This document shows positions 4,361 to 28,929 of a stretch of DNA of 64,000 bases, piece after piece (the first letter of the stretch is position 1; every line of letters starts with the position of its first letter). The stretch is from assembly GCA_040772885.1 (NCBI GenBank), contig JAXGXF010000003.1, positions 190,373 to 254,372 on the forward strand, read 5' to 3'. A model generated the notes under the pieces. The model ran no database searches, was not told the origin of the DNA, and saw nothing but the letters and a program-made list of their open reading frames with translations. This stretch comes from Candidatus Pullichristensenella sp. Its GTDB lineage: Bacteria > Bacillota > Clostridia > Christensenellales > Aristaeellaceae. The position numbers and the translations under genes are program-made.

Positions 4361-5674
4361 TCAGCGCCGCTTCGCGAATTCGATCAGCTCCTCGACGGTC
4401 TTTCGGAACCTGATATCCGTCTTCATCGTGCCCGCGATCTTGTCGCAGGCGTGCATGACCGTCGAGTGGTCGCGCTTGAACACGCGGCCGATCGCCGTCG
4501 TCGAGAGCGGCGTCAATTCCCGGAGCATGTACATGGACACCTGCCGGGGAAGCGCGACCTCGCGGCTCCTGCGCTTTCCGACGACCTCGTCCTCGCCGAC
4601 GGAGAAGTGCGACGAGACGAGCTGTATGATCGACTCCGCGGTGATCTTCCGGGCCTCGCGCGTCGAGAGCAGGGACGAGAGCGTCTCCCGCGCCATCTCG
4701 AGCGCGATCGGCTTTCCCATCAACTGCGACTGCGCGTTGACCCTCGTCAGCGCGCCCTCGAGCTCGCGTATGTTCGACTCGACGCGCTCGGCGATGTACT
4801 CGAGCACCTCGGTCGGCGTGTCGATCTCCTCATCGTCCGCCTTTCTGCGCAGGATTGCGACCCTCGTCTCGAAGTCCGGCTTCTGCACGTCCACCGGCAG
4901 CCCCCACTCGAAGCGCGAGCGCAGCCGCTCCTCGATCGCCGAGAGGTCCTTCGGCGAGCGGTCGGACGAGACGATGATCTGCTTGCCCTTCGTGTGCAGG
5001 TCGTTGAACGTGTGGAAGAACTCCTCCTGCGTCGCGACGGTCTTTGACAAAAACTGTATGTCGTCGACCAATAGGACGTCGACGTTGCGCATTTTGTTGC
5101 GCAGCTCCGCCGTCCCCTTCTTTTTGACGATCGCGTCGATCAGCTCGTTTGTAAACGTCTCGGACGTGATGAACAGCACGTTTGCCTGCGGGTCGTTCGC
5201 GCGAATGAAGTTGCCGATCGCGTTCATCAGATGCGTCTTGCCGAGGCCGACGCCGCCGTAGATGAACAGCGGGTTGTACGCCGCGCCCCGGGGCTGCTCG
5301 GCGACCGCGAGCGCCGCCGCGTGCGCGAAGCTGTTCGACGCGCCCACGACGAAGTTGTCGAACGTGTAGCGCGGGTTCAGCATCGTCGACGAGATCTCCT
5401 TGACCTGCCGCTCGAGCTCCTCGCGCGTGTAGATTTCAATGTCGTAGACCCTGCCGAAGGTCGCCCCGAACACGTTCGACATGATCGTCAGATACCTCTG
5501 GCGCAGGTTGTTGACGATCATCGAGTTGTCCGCCTCGATGATGATCGCGTCCTGTCGGACGGCGTTTAGCCGAAGCGTTTCAAACCACGTCGCGAAGCTC
5601 GTGGGATTCAGGTCGTTTTTGAACATGTTCATCGCCTTTTCCCAGGCGGCGAAGTGCTCCTTGGTGTATTGCAT
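4361..5674 (-). CDS. dnaA: chromosomal replication initiator protein DnaA
   Basis: 437 aa with Walker A GGVGLGKTHL and a C-terminal DNA-binding region (RREVALPRQVSMYMLRELT, VFKRDHSTVMHACDKI). The RBS GGAGGACGCCG precedes the ATG. Confidence 0.97.
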   Translation of the reverse strand: MQYTKEHFAAWEKAMNMFKNDLNPTSFATWFETLRLNAVRQDAIIIEADNSMIVNNLRQRYLTIMSNVFGATFGRVYDIEIYTREELERQVKEISSTMLNPRYTFDNFVVGASNSFAHAAALAVAEQPRGAAYNPLFIYGGVGLGKTHLMNAIGNFIRANDPQANVLFITSETFTNELIDAIVKKKGTAELRNKMRNVDVLLVDDIQFLSKTVATQEEFFHTFNDLHTKGKQIIVSSDRSPKDLSAIEERLRSRFEWGLPVDVQKPDFETRVAILRRKADDEEIDTPTEVLEYIAERVESNIRELEGALTRVNAQSQLMGKPIALEMARETLSSLLSTREARKITAESIIQLVSSHFSVGEDEVVGKRRSREVALPRQVSMYMLRELTPLSTTAIGRVFKRDHSTVMHACDKIAGTMKTDIRFRKTVEELIEFAKRR

Positions 5675-5692
5675 CGGCGTCCTCCGGCGTAG

Positions 5693-5723
5693 TTATCCAC
5701 AGTTTATTCACAGGTGTGGAAAT
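5693..5723. promoter_or_regulatory. DnaA box cluster
   Basis: The cluster holds a perfect TTATCCACA (5693..5701), TTATTCACA (5704..5712, 1 mismatch) and an inverted TGTGGAAAT (5715..5723). Further boxes are TGTTGATAA at 5795..5803 (1 mismatch) and GGTGGATAG at 5818..5826. Confidence 0.6.
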
Positions 5724-5890
5724 TATGACAATAACTAGGGGATTTCATTGTATCAGACCGCGCGGCAAAGTGCAAGATGCCCCGCAGATTTTCCTGTTGA
5801 TAAAGCTGTTGACAACCGGTGGATAGGATGCGGAAATTGTGTTTACAATATGACAGAAATCCAACGCTTTTTGTCACAGCGCGGGATTGG

Positions 5891-5919
5891 TTGAAAAAGG
5901 GTCGCATCGAGGGTATAAT
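5891..5919 (+). promoter_or_regulatory. sigma-A-type promoter upstream of ftsK
   Basis: TTGAAA (5891..5896), a 17-nt spacer, then TATAAT (5914..5919). Confidence 0.5.
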
Positions 5920-6004
5920 CTATGATGCCGGCAGTGCCGGCTCCAATTAAATGGCTTCGTTTTTCGGCAAGGGAGTTTATTTTTCGCGCGCGCGGAGGGG
6001 GATT

Positions 6005-8602
6005 ATGGCAAAAAAGAAGGCGCCGGTTGTGGAAAAGAGGTCGGGGGCGCTGCCGGCGGTCCTGTCGGCCGCGGGCTTCCTCCTCGCGCTCGCGTCCGTG
6101 TTCGCGCTGATCGCGTCGAACTGGATGCCGGAGCTCCATGGCGTCGACCTGGTCCTTCGCGGGCTCGGCGGCGGCATGCGCGTGCTGCTCCCGGCGCTGT
6201 TTGCGTGGCTGGGTGTGCTGTTCGCAAACGCCGCGCGCGGCAGGAGGATCGCCCTCTGGAGGGTGTTCTTCAACGCGCTGTTCGTGCTGTTCCTGTTCTC
6301 GGCGGTGCACATGTTCTCCGCGGAGTACATAGACAAAAACGGCTATCACGTGACGCAGGCATTGGGCTACGGCGATTTCCTGAACAAGTCGTACGCGTTC
6401 GGCGTCGGCGGCGGCGCGGCCGGCGCGCTGTTTGGCGGCGTGCTGTACCGCAACCTCGGCACCTGGGGCGGGTTCTTCGCCTCGCTCGCGCTCGCGGCGC
6501 TTTGCCTCGCGGCGACCGGCAGCCTCGGCAAGTGGCTGCGCAGGTTGCGGGAGCGGTCCGAGCGGATCAGGGCCGGGCGGGCCGAGCAGGAGAAGCTCCG
6601 CGCCGAGCGCGAGGCCGACCGGAACTTTGACCTCGACCGCCGCACGATGCTCAAGCCCGAGCAATTGATATCGCCCCGGCCCCCGCAGAGGCGGCCGCAC
6701 GCGGCGCCGAATCCCATCGAGGCCGCGGCGTCCGGGCCGCGGAGGGAGGCGGCGCCCCCGAAGCCGGCCGCGACCCAGAGGCGCGTCCCGACGAAGCCGA
6801 GGATCTACAACGAGACGGTCGACAGGGGGCGTGCACCCGCGGCGCCGGTTCCCGAATCGTTCGGCCCGGTGATCCGCCCGTCGATGCCGGTAGCACCGGT
6901 AGCACCGGTAGCACCGGTCGCGCCGGTAGCACCGGTCGCGCCGGCCGCGCCGGCCGCGCCGGTATTGCGCGAGCCGTTCAAGCCGGCGAAGCCCGGGCGC
7001 GTCGTCAAGAAGCCCTCCGAGGACGGCAGGGAGGATTTGACGATCGAGCCGGACGAGTACGAATTGCCCGACGAGGACGCCGCGCCGTTCGACGTGCCCG
7101 CCTCGAAGAAGCGAAAGCCGCTTCCGAAGTTCAAGAAGGGCGAGCCGGAGGAGGAGGCGCTCTACAACTACCCGCCGATCGACATCCTCTCGCACGGGCA
7201 GGCGCTCGACAAGCTCGAGAGCGACCAGTCCGACCTCGAGAAGGCGGAGCTGCTCGCGGAGACGCTCAAGAGCTTCGGCATCGACACGAAGCTGACCGGC
7301 ATCGCGCACGGCCCGGCGGTCACGCGGTTCGAATTGCAGCCCGCGCCGGGCGTCAAGGTCAGCCGCATCACCTCGCTCTCGGACGACATCGCGCTGAACC
7401 TCGCGGCCGAGCGCGTGCGCATCGAGGCGCCGATCCCGGGGAAGGCCGCGGTCGGCGTCGAGATCCCCAACGACAAGGTCGAGACGGTCGCGCTGCGCGA
7501 CGTGCTCGAGTCGGCGGACGCCCGCAGGCACGCGTCCCGCGTCGCGGTCGGGCTCGGCAAGGACAACTCCGGCCGCTACATCGTCGCCGACATCGCGAAG
7601 ATGCCGCACGTGCTGATCGCGGGGCAGACCGGCTCCGGAAAGTCGGTGTGCATCAACTCGATCATCGTATCGATCCTCTACCGCGCGACGCCGGACGAGG
7701 TGAAGCTGATTCTGATCGACCCGAAGGTCGTCGAGCTATCGGTCTACAACGGAATTCCCCACCTGATCGCGCCGGTCGTGACCGACCCCAAGAAGGCCGC
7801 GAGCGCGCTCGACTGGGCGGTCGCCGAGATGGGCGCGCGCTACAAGCGGTTCGCCGAGCGCGGCGTTCGCGACATCCGCGGCTACAACAAGGCGCTCGAG
7901 GCCGGCGAAAAGCCGATGTCGCAGATCGTGATCATCATCGACGAATTGGCCGACCTGATGATGGTCGCGCCGGGCGAGGTCGAGGACAGCATCTGCCGGC
8001 TCGCGCAATTGGCGCGCGCGGCGGGCATGCACCTCGTCATCGCGACGCAGCGGCCGTCCGTCAACGTCATCACCGGCATCATCAAGGCGAACATCCCGAC
8101 GCGCATCGCGTTCTCGGTCGCCTCGCAGGTCGACTCGCGCACGATGATCGACCACGGCGGCGCGGAGAAGCTGCTCGGAAACGGCGACATGCTGTTCGTG
8201 CCGTCCGGCATCAATAAGCCCATGCGCGTGCAGGGCTCGTGGGTCAGCGACCAGGAGGTCAACGCGGTCACGCAGTACATCAAGGAGCGGCACGAGACGA
8301 CCTACGACGAGGACGTGGTCGAAAGGCTCAACCAGTCCGTGCTCTCCGACGCCGAAAAGGAAGAGATGAACGAAGAGTACGACCCGCGGCTTCCCGAGGC
8401 GGTCGACATCGTGCTCGAGGCCGGGCAGGCGTCGATCTCGATGCTGCAGAGGCGCATGCGCGTCGGCTACGCGCGCGCGGGCAGGCTCATCGACGAGATG
8501 GCGCAGCGGGGCATCGTCTCCGAGGCCGACGGCGCGAAGCCGCGCACGGTGCTCATCTCCCGGGATCAGTTTCAACAGATGTTTGAGGAAGAGGACGCAT
8601 GA
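6005..8602 (+). CDS. ftsK: DNA translocase FtsK/SpoIIIE
   Basis: The ORF 5951..8602 is trimmed to the ATG at 6005 (MAKKKAP), which follows GGAGGGGGATT. It has N-terminal TM helices, a Pro-rich linker, the motor domain GQTGSGKSV and a C-terminal gamma winged-helix (SISMLQRRMRVGYARAGRLID). Confidence 0.93.
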   Translation: MAKKKAPVVEKRSGALPAVLSAAGFLLALASVFALIASNWMPELHGVDLVLRGLGGGMRVLLPALFAWLGVLFANAARGRRIALWRVFFNALFVLFLFSAVHMFSAEYIDKNGYHVTQALGYGDFLNKSYAFGVGGGAAGALFGGVLYRNLGTWGGFFASLALAALCLAATGSLGKWLRRLRERSERIRAGRAEQEKLRAEREADRNFDLDRRTMLKPEQLISPRPPQRRPHAAPNPIEAAASGPRREAAPPKPAATQRRVPTKPRIYNETVDRGRAPAAPVPESFGPVIRPSMPVAPVAPVAPVAPVAPVAPAAPAAPVLREPFKPAKPGRVVKKPSEDGREDLTIEPDEYELPDEDAAPFDVPASKKRKPLPKFKKGEPEEEALYNYPPIDILSHGQALDKLESDQSDLEKAELLAETLKSFGIDTKLTGIAHGPAVTRFELQPAPGVKVSRITSLSDDIALNLAAERVRIEAPIPGKAAVGVEIPNDKVETVALRDVLESADARRHASRVAVGLGKDNSGRYIVADIAKMPHVLIAGQTGSGKSVCINSIIVSILYRATPDEVKLILIDPKVVELSVYNGIPHLIAPVVTDPKKAASALDWAVAEMGARYKRFAERGVRDIRGYNKALEAGEKPMSQIVIIIDELADLMMVAPGEVEDSICRLAQLARAAGMHLVIATQRPSVNVITGIIKANIPTRIAFSVASQVDSRTMIDHGGAEKLLGNGDMLFVPSGINKPMRVQGSWVSDQEVNAVTQYIKERHETTYDEDVVERLNQSVLSDAEKEEMNEEYDPRLPEAVDIVLEAGQASISMLQRRMRVGYARAGRLIDEMAQRGIVSEADGAKPRTVLISRDQFQQMFEEEDA
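6887..6958 (+). repeat. 8 tandem 9-bp units (CCGGTAGCA / CCGGTCGCG / CCGGCCGCG) encoding (PVA)6(PAA)2 in the FtsK linker
   Basis: Read directly from the sequence. The repeat is in frame with ftsK. Confidence 0.9.
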
Positions 8603-18026: not shown

Positions 18027-20108
<2,082 letters not shown>

Positions 20109-20144
20109 TCATTGTCGGAGAATGGTGCAAAGAGGGGTAAGGAG

Positions 20145-21278
20145 ATGCTGAAAAAGACACTCTTGATGCTGTGCGTTTTGGCGGTGCTGCTTTCGGGCGC
20201 GGGGGCCTATGCGAAGATCAACTGGTCGGTCAAGGCGCCGGAGGACGGCGCGGCGGACGCGCTTCCGGGCGGCGTCGGGCTGCTCTTCGACCGGAACGGC
20301 ATTCGGCTCGAGGTCACCTCGATCGAGTTCCGCAGCGGGGAGCTGCCGAATCTGCACTTCGACGTATGGATCGAAAACGAATCCGGCGGCACGCTGAACC
20401 TGCACTTTGACGACGTCTACGTCGACGGCGAGGAGGTCAACGGCATCGGCATCTACGACCTCGCCTCCGGGAAATCGATCCCCGAGTATTTCTTCCTCGA
20501 GCCGTTCGAGGGGCAGAGCGAGGAGATTCTCCGGAACCCGCGCGAGATATCGTTCAACATCCGCGTGCAGTTCGACTCGACCGGCGCCGACTTCTTCACG
20601 CAGCCGTGCCGCATGACCGGGCCGCTGAGCATGGCGGCGGCGACCGCGTACCCGACCGTCCAACCGACGGCCGCGCCGGACTACCCGTGGCTCGAGAAGG
20701 GCGACGAGGGGAGCGACGTGCGAAGGCTGCAGCTCGCGCTGATCTCGCTGGGCTACCTGTCCGGCACCGCGGACGGCGTCTACGGGAACCAGACCGCACA
20801 GGCCGTGTACGACTTCCGCAAGCAGAACGGGCTGCTCATCGGCATCTACGACGACGAGGCGTCGCCCGACGTGCAGGCGGTGCTGTTCGGAGGCTACGCG
20901 GAGCCGTACACAGAGCCCCCGTTCTCACTCGAAATCTTCGCCGGGTCGAACGCCCAGTGGGAGGATGTGTCGGGCGACAGGCTCAAGATACACGTGCAGG
21001 TGCGAAACGTCGCGAAGTACCGGACCGTCAAGGCGTTCGAGCTCTACATGTACGCGACCGACGTCTGGGGCGAGCCCATCTACGGCGAGGATCAGGTCTA
21101 CTACGCGACGACGACGAAGAACATAGGCCCCGGAAAGACCGCCTACAGCGACTACATGGTCATTTCGGACAGGAGCCGGATCGACAAGGTTTACGTCGGC
21201 ATCAGCAAGATCGTCTACACAAACGGCACGGTCGAGGAGCCGTCGAGCGTGGAGTACTGGAGCTGGGAGATCTGGTAG
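20145..21278 (+). CDS. secreted protein with a central peptidoglycan-binding (PG_binding_1-like) domain
   Basis: The ORF is trimmed to the ATG at 20145 behind AAGGAG. The signal peptide is MLKKTLLMLCVLAVLLSGAGAYA. The PG-binding motif is DVRRLQLALISLGYLSGTADGVYGNQTAQAV. Confidence 0.7.
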   Translation: MLKKTLLMLCVLAVLLSGAGAYAKINWSVKAPEDGAADALPGGVGLLFDRNGIRLEVTSIEFRSGELPNLHFDVWIENESGGTLNLHFDDVYVDGEEVNGIGIYDLASGKSIPEYFFLEPFEGQSEEILRNPREISFNIRVQFDSTGADFFTQPCRMTGPLSMAAATAYPTVQPTAAPDYPWLEKGDEGSDVRRLQLALISLGYLSGTADGVYGNQTAQAVYDFRKQNGLLIGIYDDEASPDVQAVLFGGYAEPYTEPPFSLEIFAGSNAQWEDVSGDRLKIHVQVRNVAKYRTVKAFELYMYATDVWGEPIYGEDQVYYATTTKNIGPGKTAYSDYMVISDRSRIDKVYVGISKIVYTNGTVEEPSSVEYWSWEIW

Positions 21279-24402: not shown

Positions 24403-24431
24403 TTGACAGCGGGCGCGCTTTGGTATACATT
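24403..24431 (+). promoter_or_regulatory. putative promoter of the 24458..26964 operon
   Basis: TTGACA lies at 24403..24408. TGGTATACATT follows, giving either an extended -10 TATACA with a 15-nt spacer or TACATT with a 17-nt spacer. Confidence 0.4.
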
Positions 24432-24457
24432 GTGTTGGACGAAAGGACGAGAGGCAG

Positions 24458-24865
24458 ATGTTTCAGAGATTCCGTTGCGCGCTGGCGCGGTTCATGCAGG
24501 GCAGGCACGGCTACGACCAGCTGACGCGGTTCATGCTGTGGGCGGCGCTCGCGTTTTACGCGCTGGGGATATTCCCGCCGATCTGGTTTCTGGGGTACGT
24601 CGGGCTCGCGATACTGATCCTGGCGCTTCTGCGCGTGTTTTCGAAAAACGTGTCGCAGAGGGTGCTCGAAAACGCCAAATACCTGCAGCTTTCGGCAAAG
24701 ATACGCACGGGGATACCGCAGGCGCGCGCCCGCTTCAAAAACCGCAGGGAGTACAAGTACTTCCGCTGCCCGAAGTGCCGCTCGTGGCTGAAGCTCAAGC
24801 GCGGCGCGGGCGAGGGCACGCTGACCTGCGGAAACTGCAAGCACTCGTTCAAGGTCAAGGCCTGA
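24458..24865 (+). CDS. membrane protein with C-terminal zinc ribbon (CPKC...CGNC)
   Basis: 135 aa with two TM helices, then FRCPKCRSWLKLKRGAGEGTLTCGNCKHSF. The stop overlaps the next start (TGATG). Confidence 0.7.
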   Translation: MFQRFRCALARFMQGRHGYDQLTRFMLWAALAFYALGIFPPIWFLGYVGLAILILALLRVFSKNVSQRVLENAKYLQLSAKIRTGIPQARARFKNRREYKYFRCPKCRSWLKLKRGAGEGTLTCGNCKHSFKVKA

Positions 24866-25695
24866 TGTTCGGCTACGTGATGGCGAACCGGGACGCGCTT
24901 TCCCAGGATGAGCGCGACCGGTTTCAGGCGCTCTACTGCGGGCTGTGCCGCGCGCTTCGGACGCGCCACGGGCTGCGCGGGCAGATGACCTTGAGCTTCG
25001 ACATGACGTTTCTCTTGATGACGCTCAATTCGCTCTACGAGCCGATCGAGAAGCGCGGCCGCGAGCGGTGCTGGATGCGCCCGGGGAAGCGGCACGCGTA
25101 TGTGCTTACGATGTTCTCGGACTACGCGGCGGACATGAACGTCGCGCTCGCGTACCACAAGTTCCGGGACGACTGGGCGGACGACCGGAACCTCGTCCGG
25201 CGCACCGAGGCGGGGCTGCTCAGGAGGAGCTACCGCAGGGTCGAGCTGCTCTACCCGGAGAAGTGCGCGGCGGTCGAAAAGGGCATTCGGGCGCTCTCCG
25301 AGATCGAGAAGCGCCGCGGCGGGGGGATCGACGCCCCGGCGAACTGCTTCGGCCAGCTGCTCGGCGAATTGTTCGCCTACCGGGACGACCACTGGGCGGG
25401 GACGCTGCGCTCGATGGGCGCGGAGCTCGGCAAGTTCATCTACGTGATGGACGCCTACGACGACCTCGAGGACGACCGCAAGAAGGGCGCGTACAACCCG
25501 CTCTCGGAGCTCGGCGGCGAGGCGTTCGAGGAAACCGTGCATGCGGCGCTGACGATGCTGATCGCCCGGTGCACCGGCGAGTTCGAGAAGCTGCCGCTCT
25601 TCGAGGACGTCGAAATCCTCCGCAACATCCTCTATTCGGGCGTGTGGACGCAATACCTTTCCATACAGGCCAGGCGGAAGGGAGAGGCAAAATGA
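24865..25695 (+). CDS. DUF5685-like all-helical protein with two Asp-rich motifs
   Basis: The ORF 24358..25695 is trimmed to [13 protein letters not shown]...YCGLCRAL. From memory, MFGYV...YCGLC is the DUF5685 N-terminal signature. The Asp-rich motifs are FRDDWADD and [18 protein letters not shown]. Confidence 0.75.
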
Positions 25696-26396
25696 TACAG
25701 GATCCCTACCGGGTGCTCGGGCTCTCCCCGAACGCGTCCGACGACGAGGTCAAGGCCGCGTACCGCAGGCTCGCGAAGCAATACCATCCCGACCTGCACG
25801 GCGGGTCCGCCGAGGCCGAGGCGAAGATGAAGGAGATCAACGCCGCCTATTCGCAGATCATGAACCGCTCGACCGGAGGTTCCGGCCCCGCCAACGGCGG
25901 CTACGGGCGGCAGGGAACCGGCACTGCCGGCGGGCGGCAGGGATACGGCGGATGGCAGGGAACCGGCACTGCCGGCGGATGGGACAGCTGGGGCGGCTGG
26001 TGGAACCAGCAGCAGACCGCGGGCGCGCAGGAGAGCCCGCAGATGCAGGCCGCGCGCAACTACATCAACGCCGGCCACTATCGGGAGGCGCTGAACGTGC
26101 TCGAGGGCATACAGGAGCGCGGCGCGCGCTGGTATTATTATGCAGCCGCGGCGAACATGGGCCTTAACAACAACATCGCGGCGCTGAACTACGCGCGGCA
26201 GGCGGTCAACATGGACCCGGCGAACCTCGAGTACCGCCAGCTTCTGCACCGCCTCGAGTACGCGGGCCAGAGCTATCAGGCCGCGGGCAGGCGCTACGGC
26301 ATGCCGAACCTGAACAGCGCCTGCACGTGGCTGTGCCTTTCGCAGCTTCTGCTCTCCTGCTGCTGCGGGTCGCGCGGGTATTATTTCTGTTGCTGA
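25692..26396 (+). CDS. J-domain protein with a G/W/Q-rich linker, TPR-like repeat and C-terminal cysteine string
   Basis: The J domain is [33 protein letters not shown], with the HPD motif present. A TPR-like segment is [18 protein letters not shown]...[13 protein letters not shown]. The tail is [24 protein letters not shown]. The ATGA start overlaps the upstream stop. Confidence 0.85.
25911..25978 (+). repeat. in-frame 23-bp direct repeat (CAGGGAACCGGCACTGCCGGCGG) at 25911..25933 and 25956..25978, period 45 nt
   Basis: Read directly from the sequence. It encodes a duplicated QGTGTAGG in the J-protein linker. Confidence 0.9.
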
Positions 26397-26409
26397 GGAG
26401 GATTTTTCA

Positions 26410-26964
26410 ATGTACACCAGAGACGACGCATGGAAGCTGCTGACCGAGTACAACCGGGGGGAATTTCACCTGAAGCACGCGCGGGTCGTCGAGGACGTGA
26501 TGCGCTGGTACGCCGCCGAGCTGGGATACCGGGACGAGGCGGACTTCTGGGCGACGGTCGGGCTTCTGCACGATCTGGACTTTGAGATGTTCCCGGACGA
26601 GCACTGCGCAAAGGCCGGGGAAATCCTCCGCGAGCGCGGCTGGGACGAGAGATTGATCCGCGCGGTCGTGAGCCACGGCTACGGGATCGCCTCGGACGTG
26701 AAGCCCGAGCACGTCATGGAAAAGGTGCTCTTCGCCGCGGACGAATTGACCGGATTGATCGGCGCGGCGGCGGTCATGCGCCCGTCGAGGAGCGTCCAGG
26801 ACCTCGAGGTCAGCTCCGTCAGGAAGAAATTCAAGGACAAAAAATTCGCCGCGGGCTGCTCCCGCGACGTGATCCTGCAGGGGGCGGAGATGCTCGATTG
26901 GACGCTCGACGAATTGATCGAAAAGACGATTCTCGCGATGCGCGAGAGCTCCGCCGTCGACTGA
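26410..26964 (+). CDS. HD-domain phosphohydrolase
   Basis: 184 aa with HLKHARVV...GLLHDLDFE (H...HD motif). The RBS GAGGAGG precedes it, and it starts 13 nt after the J-protein stop. Confidence 0.85.
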   Translation: MYTRDDAWKLLTEYNRGEFHLKHARVVEDVMRWYAAELGYRDEADFWATVGLLHDLDFEMFPDEHCAKAGEILRERGWDERLIRAVVSHGYGIASDVKPEHVMEKVLFAADELTGLIGAAAVMRPSRSVQDLEVSSVRKKFKDKKFAAGCSRDVILQGAEMLDWTLDELIEKTILAMRESSAVD

Positions 26965-26977
26965 CCCCTGTAAAGCG

Positions 26978-27007
26978 AAGCGGATGCGCCGTTCTGCGCA
27001 TCCGCTT
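26978..27007. terminator. 12-bp perfect hairpin between convergent genes
   Basis: AAGCGGATGCGC-CGTTCT-GCGCATCCGCTT. The flanking U-runs are weak on both strands. Confidence 0.55.
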
Positions 27008-27012
27008 TGTCG

Positions 27013-27762
27013 TCATTCAACTGGGAGGTGTGCCTCGAGCGCCCCGACCCGCTCCGCGAGCAGCTCGCAGAACTCCGGCAGCGCCTTCGTGCGCTCGTCC
27101 TCGGGCGTCGCCAGGAACAGCTTCGCCTCGTCGACGACCCGCTGCGCGGCGTCGATCAAATCGCTCGAGCCGCCGGAATCGCGCATGCCGAGCAGGTGCC
27201 TGGTCAGGGTGTCGAGAGCGCGCGCGAGCTCCGCGTCGCCCATGCGCCGGGCCTCGTCGACGAGCCCCTGGCAGGCCGCCGACATGTCGGGGCGGATCCG
27301 GTGGTTGACCTGCGGCTGGTCGCAGAGTATCCCCCGCGCGTTGAGCCTTTCGACCATGTGCCGAACGTAGTCGGGCCGGCTCTTGATGATCGACCGGTAC
27401 TTGTTCTGGTAGCGCAGCATCAGGCTGTGGTCGCCGCCGGAGAGCTTCTGCAGGCACGAGCGCACGCTCTGCCCCTGCGAGCGCGCGGTCAGCACCTGCT
27501 CCATCAGCCAGTCGACCTCCTGCTGTGTAAACGGCACGAAGCGCGCCGTGCGCTCCTGGCCGCCCTCCCTCTTTTGCACCTGCGCGTAATAGTAATTTCG
27601 TATGCTGTTGGGGCGGCGGCCCGTCTTTTCGGCAATGCGCTCGAATACGGCCTTCAGAGGAAGGCCCTGCTGCTGTGCCTCGTCCGCCGTTTCCCAGAGG
27701 AGATTGTTCTCAAATTCGCTCCATCCCGTACGTCTTCCCGTGCGCGAAACCGCCTGTTCCAT
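27013..27762 (-). CDS. RsfA-like Myb/SANT-domain transcriptional regulator (two Myb-like repeats)
   Basis: The 637-aa ORF is trimmed to the ATG at 27762 behind GGAGGGGAAATAT. The first repeat is GWSEFENNLLWETADEAQQQGLPLKAVFERIAEKTGRRPNSIRNYYY. The second is FTQQEVDWLMEQV...LRYQNKYRSIIK. Confidence 0.7.
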   Translation of the reverse strand: MEQAVSRTGRRTGWSEFENNLLWETADEAQQQGLPLKAVFERIAEKTGRRPNSIRNYYYAQVQKREGGQERTARFVPFTQQEVDWLMEQVLTARSQGQSVRSCLQKLSGGDHSLMLRYQNKYRSIIKSRPDYVRHMVERLNARGILCDQPQVNHRIRPDMSAACQGLVDEARRMGDAELARALDTLTRHLLGMRDSGGSSDLIDAAQRVVDEAKLFLATPEDERTKALPEFCELLAERVGALEAHLPVE

Positions 27763-27859
27763 ATATTTCCCCTCCAAACTGCTTGCTGATACAGAGTATG
27801 CACGAACTATGACGGCAATATACTGATTCGGCAAATTCGTGGAAATATTTTTGCGGGGG

Positions 27860-27888
27860 TGCCCAAGGGCGGCGGCGTATGCTATAAT
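27860..27888 (+). promoter_or_regulatory. extended -10 promoter upstream of the mreB-like gene
   Basis: TGCTATAAT lies at 27880..27888. The -35 is weak (TGCCCA). Confidence 0.4.
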
Positions 27889-27909
27889 TGTCCGACGGGA
27901 GGGATGGAC

Positions 27910-28929
27910 ATGCGGTGGGAAATGGGCATTGATCTCGGCACGCGAAACGTCCGCGCGGCGCTTCCTGCGGAGGGGCCGGTGCTTTCGCAGGCGGCGGCGC
28001 TCGCGCTGCGCGAGGGGCGCGACGCGCCGGTAAACGCGGGCGACGCGGCCTTTTCCGTGTACGGGCGCACCTGCGAGGGCGTGTCGGTGCACTTTCCGCT
28101 CCACGACGGGACGCTGAAAAACAACGTCCACGCGGAGAAGCTCATCCAGTGGGTGTACTATGTGACGGAGGAGAGGCGGAAGGGAAAGCGGCTGCGCGCG
28201 CTGTTGACCACCGCGGCGCACGCGCGGGCTGTGCAGCAGGAGGCGCTTTTGCAGGCGGCGCTCGACGCGGGCGCGTCGGAGGCGGGGCTCATCTCCTCCG
28301 ACGCGGCGTCGGCGCTCGGCGCGGGGCTCGACATCATGAGCCCGCAGGCGTCCCTGATCATCGACGTCGGCGCGGGCAAGGTCGCGGCGGCGCTGTTCAC
28401 GCGCGGGCTCGTCGCCGCCAGCGCGTATTTGCCCTACGGCGTCGGGCGCATCGACGAGCGGATACAGAGGATGCTTCGCACCGAGAAGGGGTTCCTGGTC
28501 GGCCCCAAGACCGCCGAGGACATCAAGCAGGCGATGGCGACCGCGCTGACCCCCGCGCCGGTTTCGATGCCGGTCGCCGGGCTGAACCTTCAAAAGCGCG
28601 TGCCGGAGATCCTCGAGGTCGAGCCGGAAATGGTCGCGCGCGCGTGCGAGGAGGTCGTCGGCGAGCTCGTGTTCATGGTCGCGTCCGTCGTCGACAACGC
28701 GCCGGAGGAGCTGGCCGCCGATCTCAACGACGCCGGCTGCGTGCTCGCGGGCGGCGGGGCCACGATCGCCGGGCTCGACAAGCGGCTCGGCGACCGATTG
28801 GGCATCCCGACCCGCGTCGCCGAGTCGCCGGGAAACTGCGGCGTCATCGGCCTCGCGAAGGTGCTCGAGGAGCCGGACAAATATGAATCGCTGATTCTTG
28901 AGAAAATGGCGAAGCAGGCCCGGCACTAA
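27910..28929 (+). CDS. divergent MreB/Mbl-family actin-like protein
   Basis: The ORF is trimmed to the ATG at 27910 behind GGGAGGGA. MGIDLGTRNVR, IIDVGAGKVAAAL and VLAGGGATIAGLDKRLGDRLGIPTRVAESP match the MreB phosphate and adenosine motifs. Confidence 0.8.
   Translation: MRWEMGIDLGTRNVRAALPAEGPVLSQAAALALREGRDAPVNAGDAAFSVYGRTCEGVSVHFPLHDGTLKNNVHAEKLIQWVYYVTEERRKGKRLRALLTTAAHARAVQQEALLQAALDAGASEAGLISSDAASALGAGLDIMSPQASLIIDVGAGKVAAALFTRGLVAASAYLPYGVGRIDERIQRMLRTEKGFLVGPKTAEDIKQAMATALTPAPVSMPVAGLNLQKRVPEILEVEPEMVARACEEVVGELVFMVASVVDNAPEELAADLNDAGCVLAGGGATIAGLDKRLGDRLGIPTRVAESPGNCGVIGLAKVLEEPDKYESLILEKMAKQARH

Follow-up and report, generated by a model that had tools for sequence, protein, structure and literature searches.

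A conserved three-gene module and its local neighbor

The window, i.e., the whole 64,000-nucleotide (nt) stretch of Candidatus Pullichristensenella sp. DNA analyzed here (contig JAXGXF010000003.1, positions 190,373 to 254,372 of the forward strand), contains four co-directional genes, encoding a zinc-ribbon protein with predicted transmembrane (TM) segments (ZnR), a member of the family DUF5685, a J-domain protein (J-protein), and an HD-superfamily protein. A preliminary description made from the sequence had taken all four as one tightly coupled operon and the first three as a dedicated, nonrandom module. Comparison across species bears out the module of three, whereas the HD gene was found beside it in the closest relatives only. 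The genes are as follows.

24458-24865, plus strand: ZnR gene (gene 1), 135 residues, from the list of open reading frames (ORFs) and the sequence
24865-25695, plus strand: DUF5685 gene (gene 2), 276 residues, Pfam PF18937
25692-26396, plus strand: gene for a class C J-protein (gene 3), 234 residues, from PF00226, the AlphaFold2 model, and Foldseek
26410-26964, plus strand: HD gene (gene 4), 184 residues, HD superfamily, a lineage-specific neighbor

The junctions between these genes lie exactly where they had been described. The stop codon of the ZnR gene and the start codon of the DUF5685 gene have one base in common (TGATG, 24863-24867), and the DUF5685 and J genes overlap by 4 nt (ATGA, 25692-25695). 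The stop codon TGA of the J gene (26394-26396) runs into the sequence GAGGAGG (26395-26401), and the ATG of the HD gene follows at 26410, leaving a gap of 13 nt. In the annotation of the source genome, the DUF5685 gene is listed as encoding a "hypothetical protein" and the J gene a "J domain-containing protein."

A scan for DUF5685 loci using one genome per GTDB species yielded at least 591 species-level loci. The best 80 of these, with 43 to 63% identity, formed the comparative set, which covers Christensenellales, Oscillospirales, Lachnospirales, Erysipelotrichaceae, and Coriobacteriia. The DUF5685 gene is followed directly by a J-protein gene in 79 of the 80 loci; the match extends over the whole J-protein in 78 of these 79 (E = 1e-28 to 1e-101) and is confined to the J domain in the remaining one (L055, E = 1e-08). 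The stop and start codons of the two genes overlap in 69 of 79 loci, and the gap is at most 30 nt in 77. Since such overlaps recur in 69 independent species-level loci, the coupling of DUF5685 and J goes far beyond chance, and the pair is also kept in distant members having 26 to 32% identity (L081 and L083). The sole locus of the 80 with neither a J-protein nor a ZnR gene beside DUF5685 is that of Anaerostipes sp. 992a (L047:5992-6840), where the neighbors are an ACT-domain-like ORF and a response regulator.

The ZnR gene adjoins the pair in 59 of 76 informative loci and is not beside it in the other 17. Its position varies: it lies upstream of DUF5685 in 36 loci and downstream of J in 23. 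Because the adjacency persists in two gene orders, there is strong evidence for a functional link between ZnR and the pair. A check had been proposed on whether the ZnR, J, and HD genes consistently adjoin DUF5685 across Clostridia; for J, adjacency was found in Erysipelotrichaceae and Coriobacteriia as well, for ZnR it was found in most informative loci, and for HD it did not hold beyond the closest relatives. When all ORFs of the loci were clustered all against all, the only recurrent neighbors were Hsp70, ZnR, and a 185-residue membrane protein, joined in the closest relatives by tadA and the HD gene; the "tadA" cluster, contaminated by antisense ORFs that arise in high-GC DNA, was set aside. 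The conserved unit is the trio of ZnR, DUF5685, and J, with the HD gene outside it, and statements at the level of this trio can be made with high confidence. As the preliminary description had supposed for the three products, the literature searched assigns no function to the DUF5685 module. A DUF5685 protein is reported for C. difficile R20291 (PMC9403866). The family is named in one paper, as an item in a list, and the module is not described in surveys of J-proteins, in a paper on DnaK paralogues, or in a review of bacterial Hsp70s.

The HD gene follows the J gene only in the four closest relatives (L001, L002, L003, and L007), with gaps of 4 to 28 nt. Its product stays below the cutoffs of PF01966 (19.1 bits versus 22) and HDIG (20.5 versus 27.6), matches TIGR00295 weakly, and has no sequence relative in the PDB; H20 and H53-D54 are visible in its sequence. 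A functional four-gene operon with the HD hydrolase as an integral part of the module is very improbable. Such an operon would fit the 13-nt gap, the strong GAGGAGG, the scan for promoters and terminators, which made no call between the J and HD genes, and the gene order of the four closest relatives, but there is no HD gene beside the module in the other 76 loci, by which a conserved four-gene unit is largely refuted, and no HD homologue appears in the conserved neighbor clusters beyond three to four loci. As a local passenger peculiar to this lineage, the HD gene may be cotranscribed with the trio at this locus.

Two candidate signals flank the four genes.

24403-24431, plus strand: sigma-70-like promoter candidate TTGACA-17-TACATT, 27 nt 5' of the ZnR start codon
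26975-27010, no strand assigned: stem-loop of 15 pairs with the loop CGUUCU, candidate bidirectional terminator

The promoter candidate, noted previously for its TTGACA hexamer (24403-24408), has a TACATT partner (24426-24431) at a spacer of 17 and matches the consensus at 10 of 12 positions. Two sites of this grade were found in 3.4 kb, versus 0.6 ± 0.7 in shuffled sequences. The perfect 12-bp hairpin described as closing the set (26978-26989 and 26996-27007) was confirmed and, at its full length of 15 pairs (26975-27010), has a stability of -29.2 kcal/mol (z = -4.8) that was equaled by none of 200 shuffles. It occupies the 48-nt gap between the HD gene and the convergent minus-strand gene downstream. 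The terminator scan did not call this stem-loop because it lacks a clear U-tract.

DUF5685, the J-protein, and the cysteine string

The DUF5685 protein of the window matches PF18937 over profile positions 1 to 270 of 272 (E = 8.6e-95; 317.6 bits versus a cutoff of 26.7) and belongs to a family of 6,330 clusters at 50% identity (E ≤ 1e-3). AlphaFold2, run on an alignment of 56 sequences, produced a model of high confidence (predicted local distance difference test [pLDDT] 92; predicted TM score [pTM] 0.90) that is all-helical except for one β-hairpin. When this model was compared with the PDB by Foldseek, the top 50 matches were all proteins of the isoprenoid-synthase fold, i.e., farnesyl diphosphate synthase, geranylgeranyl diphosphate synthase, hexaprenyl diphosphate synthase, MoeN5, and aristolochene synthase, with TM scores of up to 0.57 (MoeN5) and probabilities of up to 1.0.

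Residue conservation was determined from 130 representatives sharing at most 50% identity with one another. Fully invariant are Y24, C25, G26, C28, C69, D102, D106, G189, Y193, and D196, and conservation reaches 98 to 99% for D200 and D204 (both 99%), E148, D46, and N211. In the model, the sequence D102-D103-W-A-D106, a DDxxD motif, lies at the C-terminal end of helix 83-107, and D196-x3-D200-x3-D204 lies in helix 178-207 with the i, i+4, i+8 spacing of an NSE/DTE motif, the residue identities being noncanonical. The DDxxD and NSE/DTE motifs are the metal-binding motifs of class I terpenoid synthases, in which they have the positions and spacings seen here for D102/D106 and D196/D200/D204. Judged from the model, DUF5685 is isoprenoid-synthase-like in fold and motif logic while being a member of no known family; this predicted fold and its metal-binding-like motifs, which go beyond the earlier label of an all-helical, Asp-rich protein, are newly recognized here.

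The J-protein of the window is divided into four parts.

25701-25865, plus strand: J domain, residues 4-58, with HPD at residues 32-34 (Pfam PF00226, Foldseek)
25875-26024, plus strand: disordered Gly/Tyr/Trp/Gln-rich linker, residues 62-111 (pLDDT below 50, low-complexity alignment columns)
26037-26288, plus strand: small tetratricopeptide repeat (TPR)-like helical domain, residues 116-199 (pLDDT 91-96, Foldseek, weak TPR sequence matches)
26304-26393, plus strand: C-terminal cysteine string, residues 205-234, with 7 Cys and a predicted short helix at residues 210-221

The J domain scores 66.4 bits with PF00226, and its residues H32, P33, and D34 are invariant in 64 homologues. The AlphaFold2 model, likewise based on 64 sequences, features the J domain (residues 1 to 60), a disordered linker, a confidently predicted five-helix TPR-like domain, and a short helix in the cysteine string. 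Foldseek aligned the first part with J domains at root mean square deviations of 1 to 2 Å, whereas the TPR part matched Fis1, SGT, SPAG1-TPR3, and MamA; TPR matches in Pfam are subthreshold for the window protein and above threshold for many homologues. The DnaJ_C domain and the CxxCxGxG finger of classes A and B are absent, DnaJ models matching the J-domain part only and far below their equivalog cutoffs. Since the HPD-containing J domain is present and both DnaJ_C and the zinc finger are lacking, the J-protein is assigned to class C. The cysteine tail, already singled out in the preliminary description, is a conserved feature: the 79 J-proteins have a median of 7 Cys within the last 35 residues versus a median of 0 elsewhere. 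Cysteine is also the only universal feature of the tails, Trp occurring in some tail types only.

A different arrangement was found in nine DUF5685 proteins of a Bacteroidota type (from Chondrinema litorale and eight more), which comprise 404 to 530 residues. They keep the three cysteines, both Asp motifs, and the YNP motif, and carry a fused C-terminal stretch with 14 to 25 Cys per 60 residues, e.g., CCCHQCCNNCKCPCEDCHCSGCHC... At these loci, neither a J-protein, Hsp70, or ZnR gene nor any conserved neighbor was found. A metagenome search for this type gave three loci only, where DUF5685 was again fused and again without conserved context. Several of the fusions are metallothionein-like, with up to 52 Cys per protein (L082:7001-8257; L085:3664-4935 and 4942-6471; L087:850-2247; L088:5001-6215), L085 harboring two tandem copies; an acidic/Lys-rich helical tail follows the Cys stretch, and the N-terminus reads MLGHL in place of the otherwise invariant MFGY.

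Because the Bacteroidota fusion carries the cysteine string without a J-protein, the string rather than the J domain appears to be the true partner of DUF5685. Read from the sequences as a Rosetta-stone relation, it is the invariant partner: Bacteroidota have it in cis, whereas in Clostridia and Coriobacteriia the J-protein provides it in trans. Around this core, the J domain, the TPR domain, the membrane partners, and Hsp70 form a superstructure that is specific to the clade.

Membrane partners and Hsp70

The ZnR protein starts with a conserved FMxGRxGxDxL sequence, followed by hydrophobic segments at approximately residues 24 to 41 and 43 to 60, the motif RxFS(K/R)NxxxRxxEN, and a C-terminal CPKC...CGNC ribbon. 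From this sequence, a membrane topology with two TM segments is inferred. Zn-ribbon matches in Pfam were subthreshold only. The family alignment from 59 loci displays the same order of elements, i.e., FMxGRxGxDxL, a TM hairpin, FSRNxxKRxxEN, and a YKYFxCPxC...TCxxC ribbon.

In 10 loci, the J-protein ends with another type of tail, CCDLWCADxxCECMGGDLCxCM, and in all 10 the J gene is followed immediately by the gene for the 185-residue polytopic membrane protein, which belongs to no known family and whose gene overlaps the J gene by 34 nt. This protein is present in 10 of 10 loci with the CECMGGD tail versus 0 of 69 loci with other tails (Fisher P = 7e-13). Conversely, ZnR is encoded in 58 of the 69 loci with a hydrophobic string and in 1 of the 10 with the CECMGGD tail. 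Because the type of tail and the small membrane protein go together, the C-terminus of the J-protein can be placed at the membrane. A distant Subdoligranulum locus combines DUF5685 and J with a related membrane protein of 190 residues.

The 34-nt overlap is read in two frames. The last 34 nt of the J gene encode ...CECMGGDLCxCM* (L067:7417-7450, L041:7420-7453, L074:7444-7477, and L080:7402-7435), and the same nucleotides in the second frame encode the start of the 185-residue protein, (M/V)YGRRSLxMHV. An internal ATG in the gene for the latter would cut the overlap to approximately 10 nt. Dual coding may partly explain the strict conservation of the CECMGGD tail.

Further proteins occur at single loci or in single lineages. 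In Pusillibacter faecalis, an RseC/MucC-family membrane protein (PF04246; L081:6586-6996) is encoded 5 nt upstream of the divergent DUF5685-J pair, at the place of ZnR; no such partner was found in a search of the 80 loci. At the same Pusillibacter locus, ispD and ispF are located approximately 4 kb upstream, probably by coincidence. The J and ZnR genes of Agathobacter and Roseburia are separated by a cardiolipin synthase gene (TIGR04265, 357 bits, in Agathobacter; L050:7414-9015). On the Roseburia contig L055 (6831-8549), the N-terminus of the J domain is fused in frame to cardiolipin synthase, the TPR domain and Cys tail being lost; this fusion could be a real deletion or an assembly artifact.

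In 15 of 80 loci, the cluster includes a gene of the Hsp70/DnaK family, which precedes DUF5685 or follows J and has otherwise unrelated neighbors; none stands beside the module in the window. These Hsp70s comprise 577 to 602 residues, match PF00012, and score 800 to 885 bits on the NCBIfam DnaK models, near the equivalog cutoff; they score best on DnaK models, then on HscA, and not on HscC. At none of the 15 loci is the Hsp70 gene located beside grpE, dnaJ, or hrcA. These findings support a real partnership of the module with Hsp70 and suggest the cluster Hsp70 as a candidate dedicated paralogue. The earlier proposal that the J-protein recruits Hsp70 is plausible given the invariant HPD motif and the presence of Hsp70 in the cluster at 15 loci.

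Possible functions and genomic surroundings

The reading that we favor takes DUF5685 and the cysteine string as the core of the conserved module and the module as a membrane-associated Hsp70 co-chaperone system with S-prenylation; taken as a whole it is possible, with the chances leaning somewhat against it. DUF5685 would be an enzyme requiring Mg2+; it would bind an allylic prenyl diphosphate and alkylate, i.e., S-prenylate, the cysteines of the string, much as ComQ and PalQ act on the product of a neighboring gene, and its three-cysteine site (C25, C28, and C69) would perhaps hold Zn2+ for thiol activation. The lipidated string, docked on the two-TM ZnR protein or an alternative partner, would keep the TPR domain and the J domain on the cytoplasmic side of the membrane, where the J domain would switch on DnaK or the cluster-encoded Hsp70 for membrane-proximal clients. 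The individual parts differ in strength. Recruitment of Hsp70 at the membrane is fairly probable, while prenylation of the string by DUF5685, suggested by analogy, is rather doubtful. Equally tentative is the view that DUF5685 might represent a new kind of protein prenyltransferase, through which Gram-positive anaerobes would possess a "bacterial cysteine-string protein," anchored by lipid, for the recruitment of Hsp70 to the membrane, with a self-modifying fused form in Bacteroidota. If prenylation holds true, bacteria would have in this module their first endogenous system for protein S-prenylation, a convergent counterpart to the lipidation of neuronal cysteine-string protein (CSP) and to CaaX prenylation.

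Several observations weigh against this reading. We know of no earlier case in which a native bacterial protein is S-prenylated. The Foldseek E-values of the DUF5685 model are weak (4e-3 to 0.1), and the orientation of the Asp motifs toward a cavity and the joining of the three cysteines into a site are inferred from helix positions only. At the sequence level, a Pfam search with 56 members at E ≤ 10 returned DUF5685 alone and no isoprenoid synthase family, the NCBIfam search returned nothing, and a profile search of the PDB gave no relative, with one chance match at E = 0.32. An hhalign comparison with an approximate sequence of E. coli IspA was not significant; neither the window nor the loci contain a polyprenyl synthase from which a real profile could be built. 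His72 of the motif C69-x-x-H72-P is present in 90% of the family, whereas the window protein has Arg at this position (25078-25080); should His72 and the cysteines C25, C28, and C69 jointly bind a metal, the lineage of the window must use another residue, possibly H77. No conserved neighbor for prenyl-diphosphate supply emerged from the clustering of locus ORFs. The fused Cys stretches of Bacteroidota are hydrophilic and metallothionein-like, and domains joined to their partner in one polypeptide more typically bind a cofactor or metal than serve as its substrate. Tail and membrane partner may covary because of a single evolutionary event in one clade, and the cluster Hsp70 could be a paralogue or the sole DnaK of the genomes that carry it.

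Alternatively, the module may be a unit for the handling of metals or Fe-S clusters, in which a metallothionein-like or cluster-binding string and a metal-dependent DUF5685 partner are loaded, unloaded, or remodeled by Hsp70 that the J-protein recruits, by the logic of HscB/IscU/HscA or HscC/DjlB/DjlC. We consider this unlikely, if deserving serious attention. The Bacteroidota stretches are in keeping with it, being hydrophilic and rich in CC, CxC, and CxxC with His and Asp, as is their fusion, which suits a cofactor-binding domain. All three window proteins contain conserved Cys clusters, and in the CCDLWCADxxCECMGGDLCxCM tail the spacing is fixed and acidic residues occur, but this spacing possibly stems in part from the 34-nt dual-coding overlap, and in the common tail the number and spacing of the cysteines vary freely within a Leu/Ala/Asn-rich helix, unlike in defined cluster sites. 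The RseC/MucC family, which takes the place of ZnR in Pusillibacter, is linked to SoxR Fe-S reduction. Likenesses to HscB_C or IscU are lacking, and the fold and the DDxxD and NSE-like motifs of DUF5685 favor Mg2+-diphosphate chemistry instead. The Cd2+ sensitivity of HscC/DjlBC mutants (PMC8215388) would fit a role in metal handling, whereas the occurrence of the module in aerobic marine Bacteroidota implies that it is not an Fe-S device confined to anaerobes. If the string does bind metal, the module would be a new device in which metal handling is coupled to a chaperone.

Less probable still is a chaperoned lipid enzyme. DUF5685 would then make or modify an isoprenoid lipid of the membrane, ZnR would tether or stabilize it, and the J-protein would bring Hsp70 for its folding, assembly, or turnover, the string serving as the anchor of the J-protein only. 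The isoprenoid-synthase fold and motifs suit such an enzyme, tight 1:1 translational coupling suggests a stable complex, the Fis1-like TPR domain and the hydrophobic helix after it at the C-terminus are reminiscent of a tail-anchored adaptor, and one lineage has a cardiolipin synthase gene within the cluster. The ZnR architecture is also parallel to that of plant ORANGE (OR) (PMC12063368), yet ZnR lacks the DnaJ-type CxxCxGxG finger and is not an OR homologue, and it is not beside the pair in 17 of 76 loci. Moreover, no precursor or tailoring genes are conserved nearby, and the fused Cys stretch in Bacteroidota, which occurs without J, ZnR, or Hsp70, would be left unexplained.

A mobile, defense, or toxin-antitoxin cassette, or a chance neighborhood, has a negligible probability and was refuted at the level tested (PADLOC and the contexts of plasmid and phage records): DUF5685 does occur in two "phage" and three plasmid records, but PADLOC gave no match for any of the four proteins, the "phage" records are unverified fecal contigs with housekeeping neighbors such as folC, the plasmid records are large chromid-like replicons with the core genes gmk, rpoZ, priA, and def, and the gene is present in at least 591 species-level genomes. 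The two former records, L084 (MT835652.1) and MT835850.1, are titled "UNVERIFIED: Bacteriophage sp." and contain complete ZnR-DUF5685-J with a folC-like gene behind it; their appearance is that of bacterial contigs wrongly filed under phage.

Five known systems were compared with the module, which could be assigned to none of them beyond the generic J domain and the fold. In E. coli, the specialized Hsp70 HscC works with the tail-anchored J-proteins DjlB and DjlC on clients that are unknown, and its loss causes sensitivity to Cd2+ (PMC8215388). As in this system and in the membrane protein DjlA, a class C J-protein would be located at the cytoplasmic membrane via its C-terminal end, and an Hsp70 gene, possibly a specialized one, lies beside the J gene in part of the family (here 15 of 80 loci). 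The homology, however, is confined to the J domain, with no match to a DjlC-like model beyond it, the cluster Hsp70s score best as DnaK, and the anchor is a Cys string rather than a classical TM helix; HscC/DjlC, in turn, has neither an obligatory enzyme-like partner nor a Zn-ribbon membrane protein. The HscB/IscU/HscA system likewise unites a dedicated J-protein, a Cys-containing partner, and a specialized Hsp70 in one cluster, but the J-protein lacks the C-terminal domain of HscB (TIGR00714 matches the J domain only, E = 0.004), IscU is absent, and the fold of the partner differs.

The domain order resembles that of eukaryotic CSPalpha/DNAJC5, which consists of a J domain, a linker, and a dense Cys string and is attached to the membrane by lipidation (PMC10903463). 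The module has the same succession of J domain, linker, and Cys string, and, as with the DHHC palmitoyl-transferases that act on CSPalpha, a partner membrane protein with a Zn-binding, Cys-rich domain. The string motif of CSP, ...CCCFNCCCGKC, and the sequence ...LLCNCCCGG found here are locally similar. In contrast to the neuronal system, the module is bacterial and convergent at best, a TPR domain separates linker and string, a DHHC motif is absent from ZnR, and the proposed donor would be a prenyl diphosphate delivered via a soluble enzyme of the isoprenoid-synthase fold instead of acyl-CoA via a DHHC enzyme.

For the proposed chemistry, a parallel is provided by ComQ/ComX and PalQ/PalX, where an enzyme related to isoprenyl diphosphate synthases prenylates a Trp near the C-terminus of the peptide encoded by the adjacent gene (PMC5331326, PMC10853753). 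Here, too, the enzyme gene would lie immediately upstream of the gene for its candidate substrate (79 of 80 loci), and the fold class matches that of the DUF5685 model. The acceptor, however, is a Trp of a short secreted peptide in one case and a candidate Cys of an intracellular co-chaperone of 200 to 270 residues in the other; a conserved C-terminal Trp acceptor was not found in the J tails, and sequence homology was not established. Finally, plant ORANGE (DnaJE1) has an N-terminal interaction region, two TM segments, and a C-terminal Zn-binding Cys motif, and pairs with phytoene synthase (PMC12063368). The combination of a small two-TM Zn-binding protein with an enzyme of the isoprenoid-synthase fold is common to both, but OR has a DnaJ-type zinc finger and no J-domain partner, whereas ZnR has a simple CxxC...CxxC ribbon, so that the analogy is one of architecture only.

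The module is rated here as a specialized J-protein/Hsp70 system, with a substantial chance of categorically new chemistry within it. Few specialized membrane-associated Hsp70/J-protein systems are understood in bacteria, and DUF5685 is prominent in gut and digester Clostridia and in Coriobacteriia, which dominate the uncharacterized genes of the microbiome. Three "hypothetical" annotations are turned into one defined module with testable biochemistry, and rules for annotation are gained: a core pair, alternative membrane partners, and an optional Hsp70, with the HD gene outside the unit correcting the operon model.

As to the wider surroundings, the preliminary description had placed the genes between tadA and pta-ackA on one side and a sporulation-type, RsfA-like regulator on the other. 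Profile searches confirmed tadA, pta, and ackA. The downstream protein (27013-27762, minus strand; approximately 249 residues, starting MEQAVSRTGRRTGWSEFENNLLWE...) has no match in Pfam at E ≤ 0.01 or in NCBIfam at E ≤ 0.001 and matched no RsfA/Myb-type profile, so the RsfA-like label was not upheld; the listed ORF of this gene reaches 28926 only owing to high GC. A link to sporulation was rejected, as the module is present in Coriobacteriia and Erysipelotrichaceae and the neighbor is not demonstrably RsfA. Just past this convergent neighbor, positions 27859-28929 (plus strand) encode an actin-like protein of the MreB/Mbl family (PF06723, E = 8e-63), which is a member of the Hsp70/actin superfamily and not an Hsp70. 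Upstream of ackA, a gene unrelated to the module (20076-21278, plus strand) encodes a 400-residue protein that has a hydrophobic segment at its N-terminus and a putative peptidoglycan-binding domain (PF01471).

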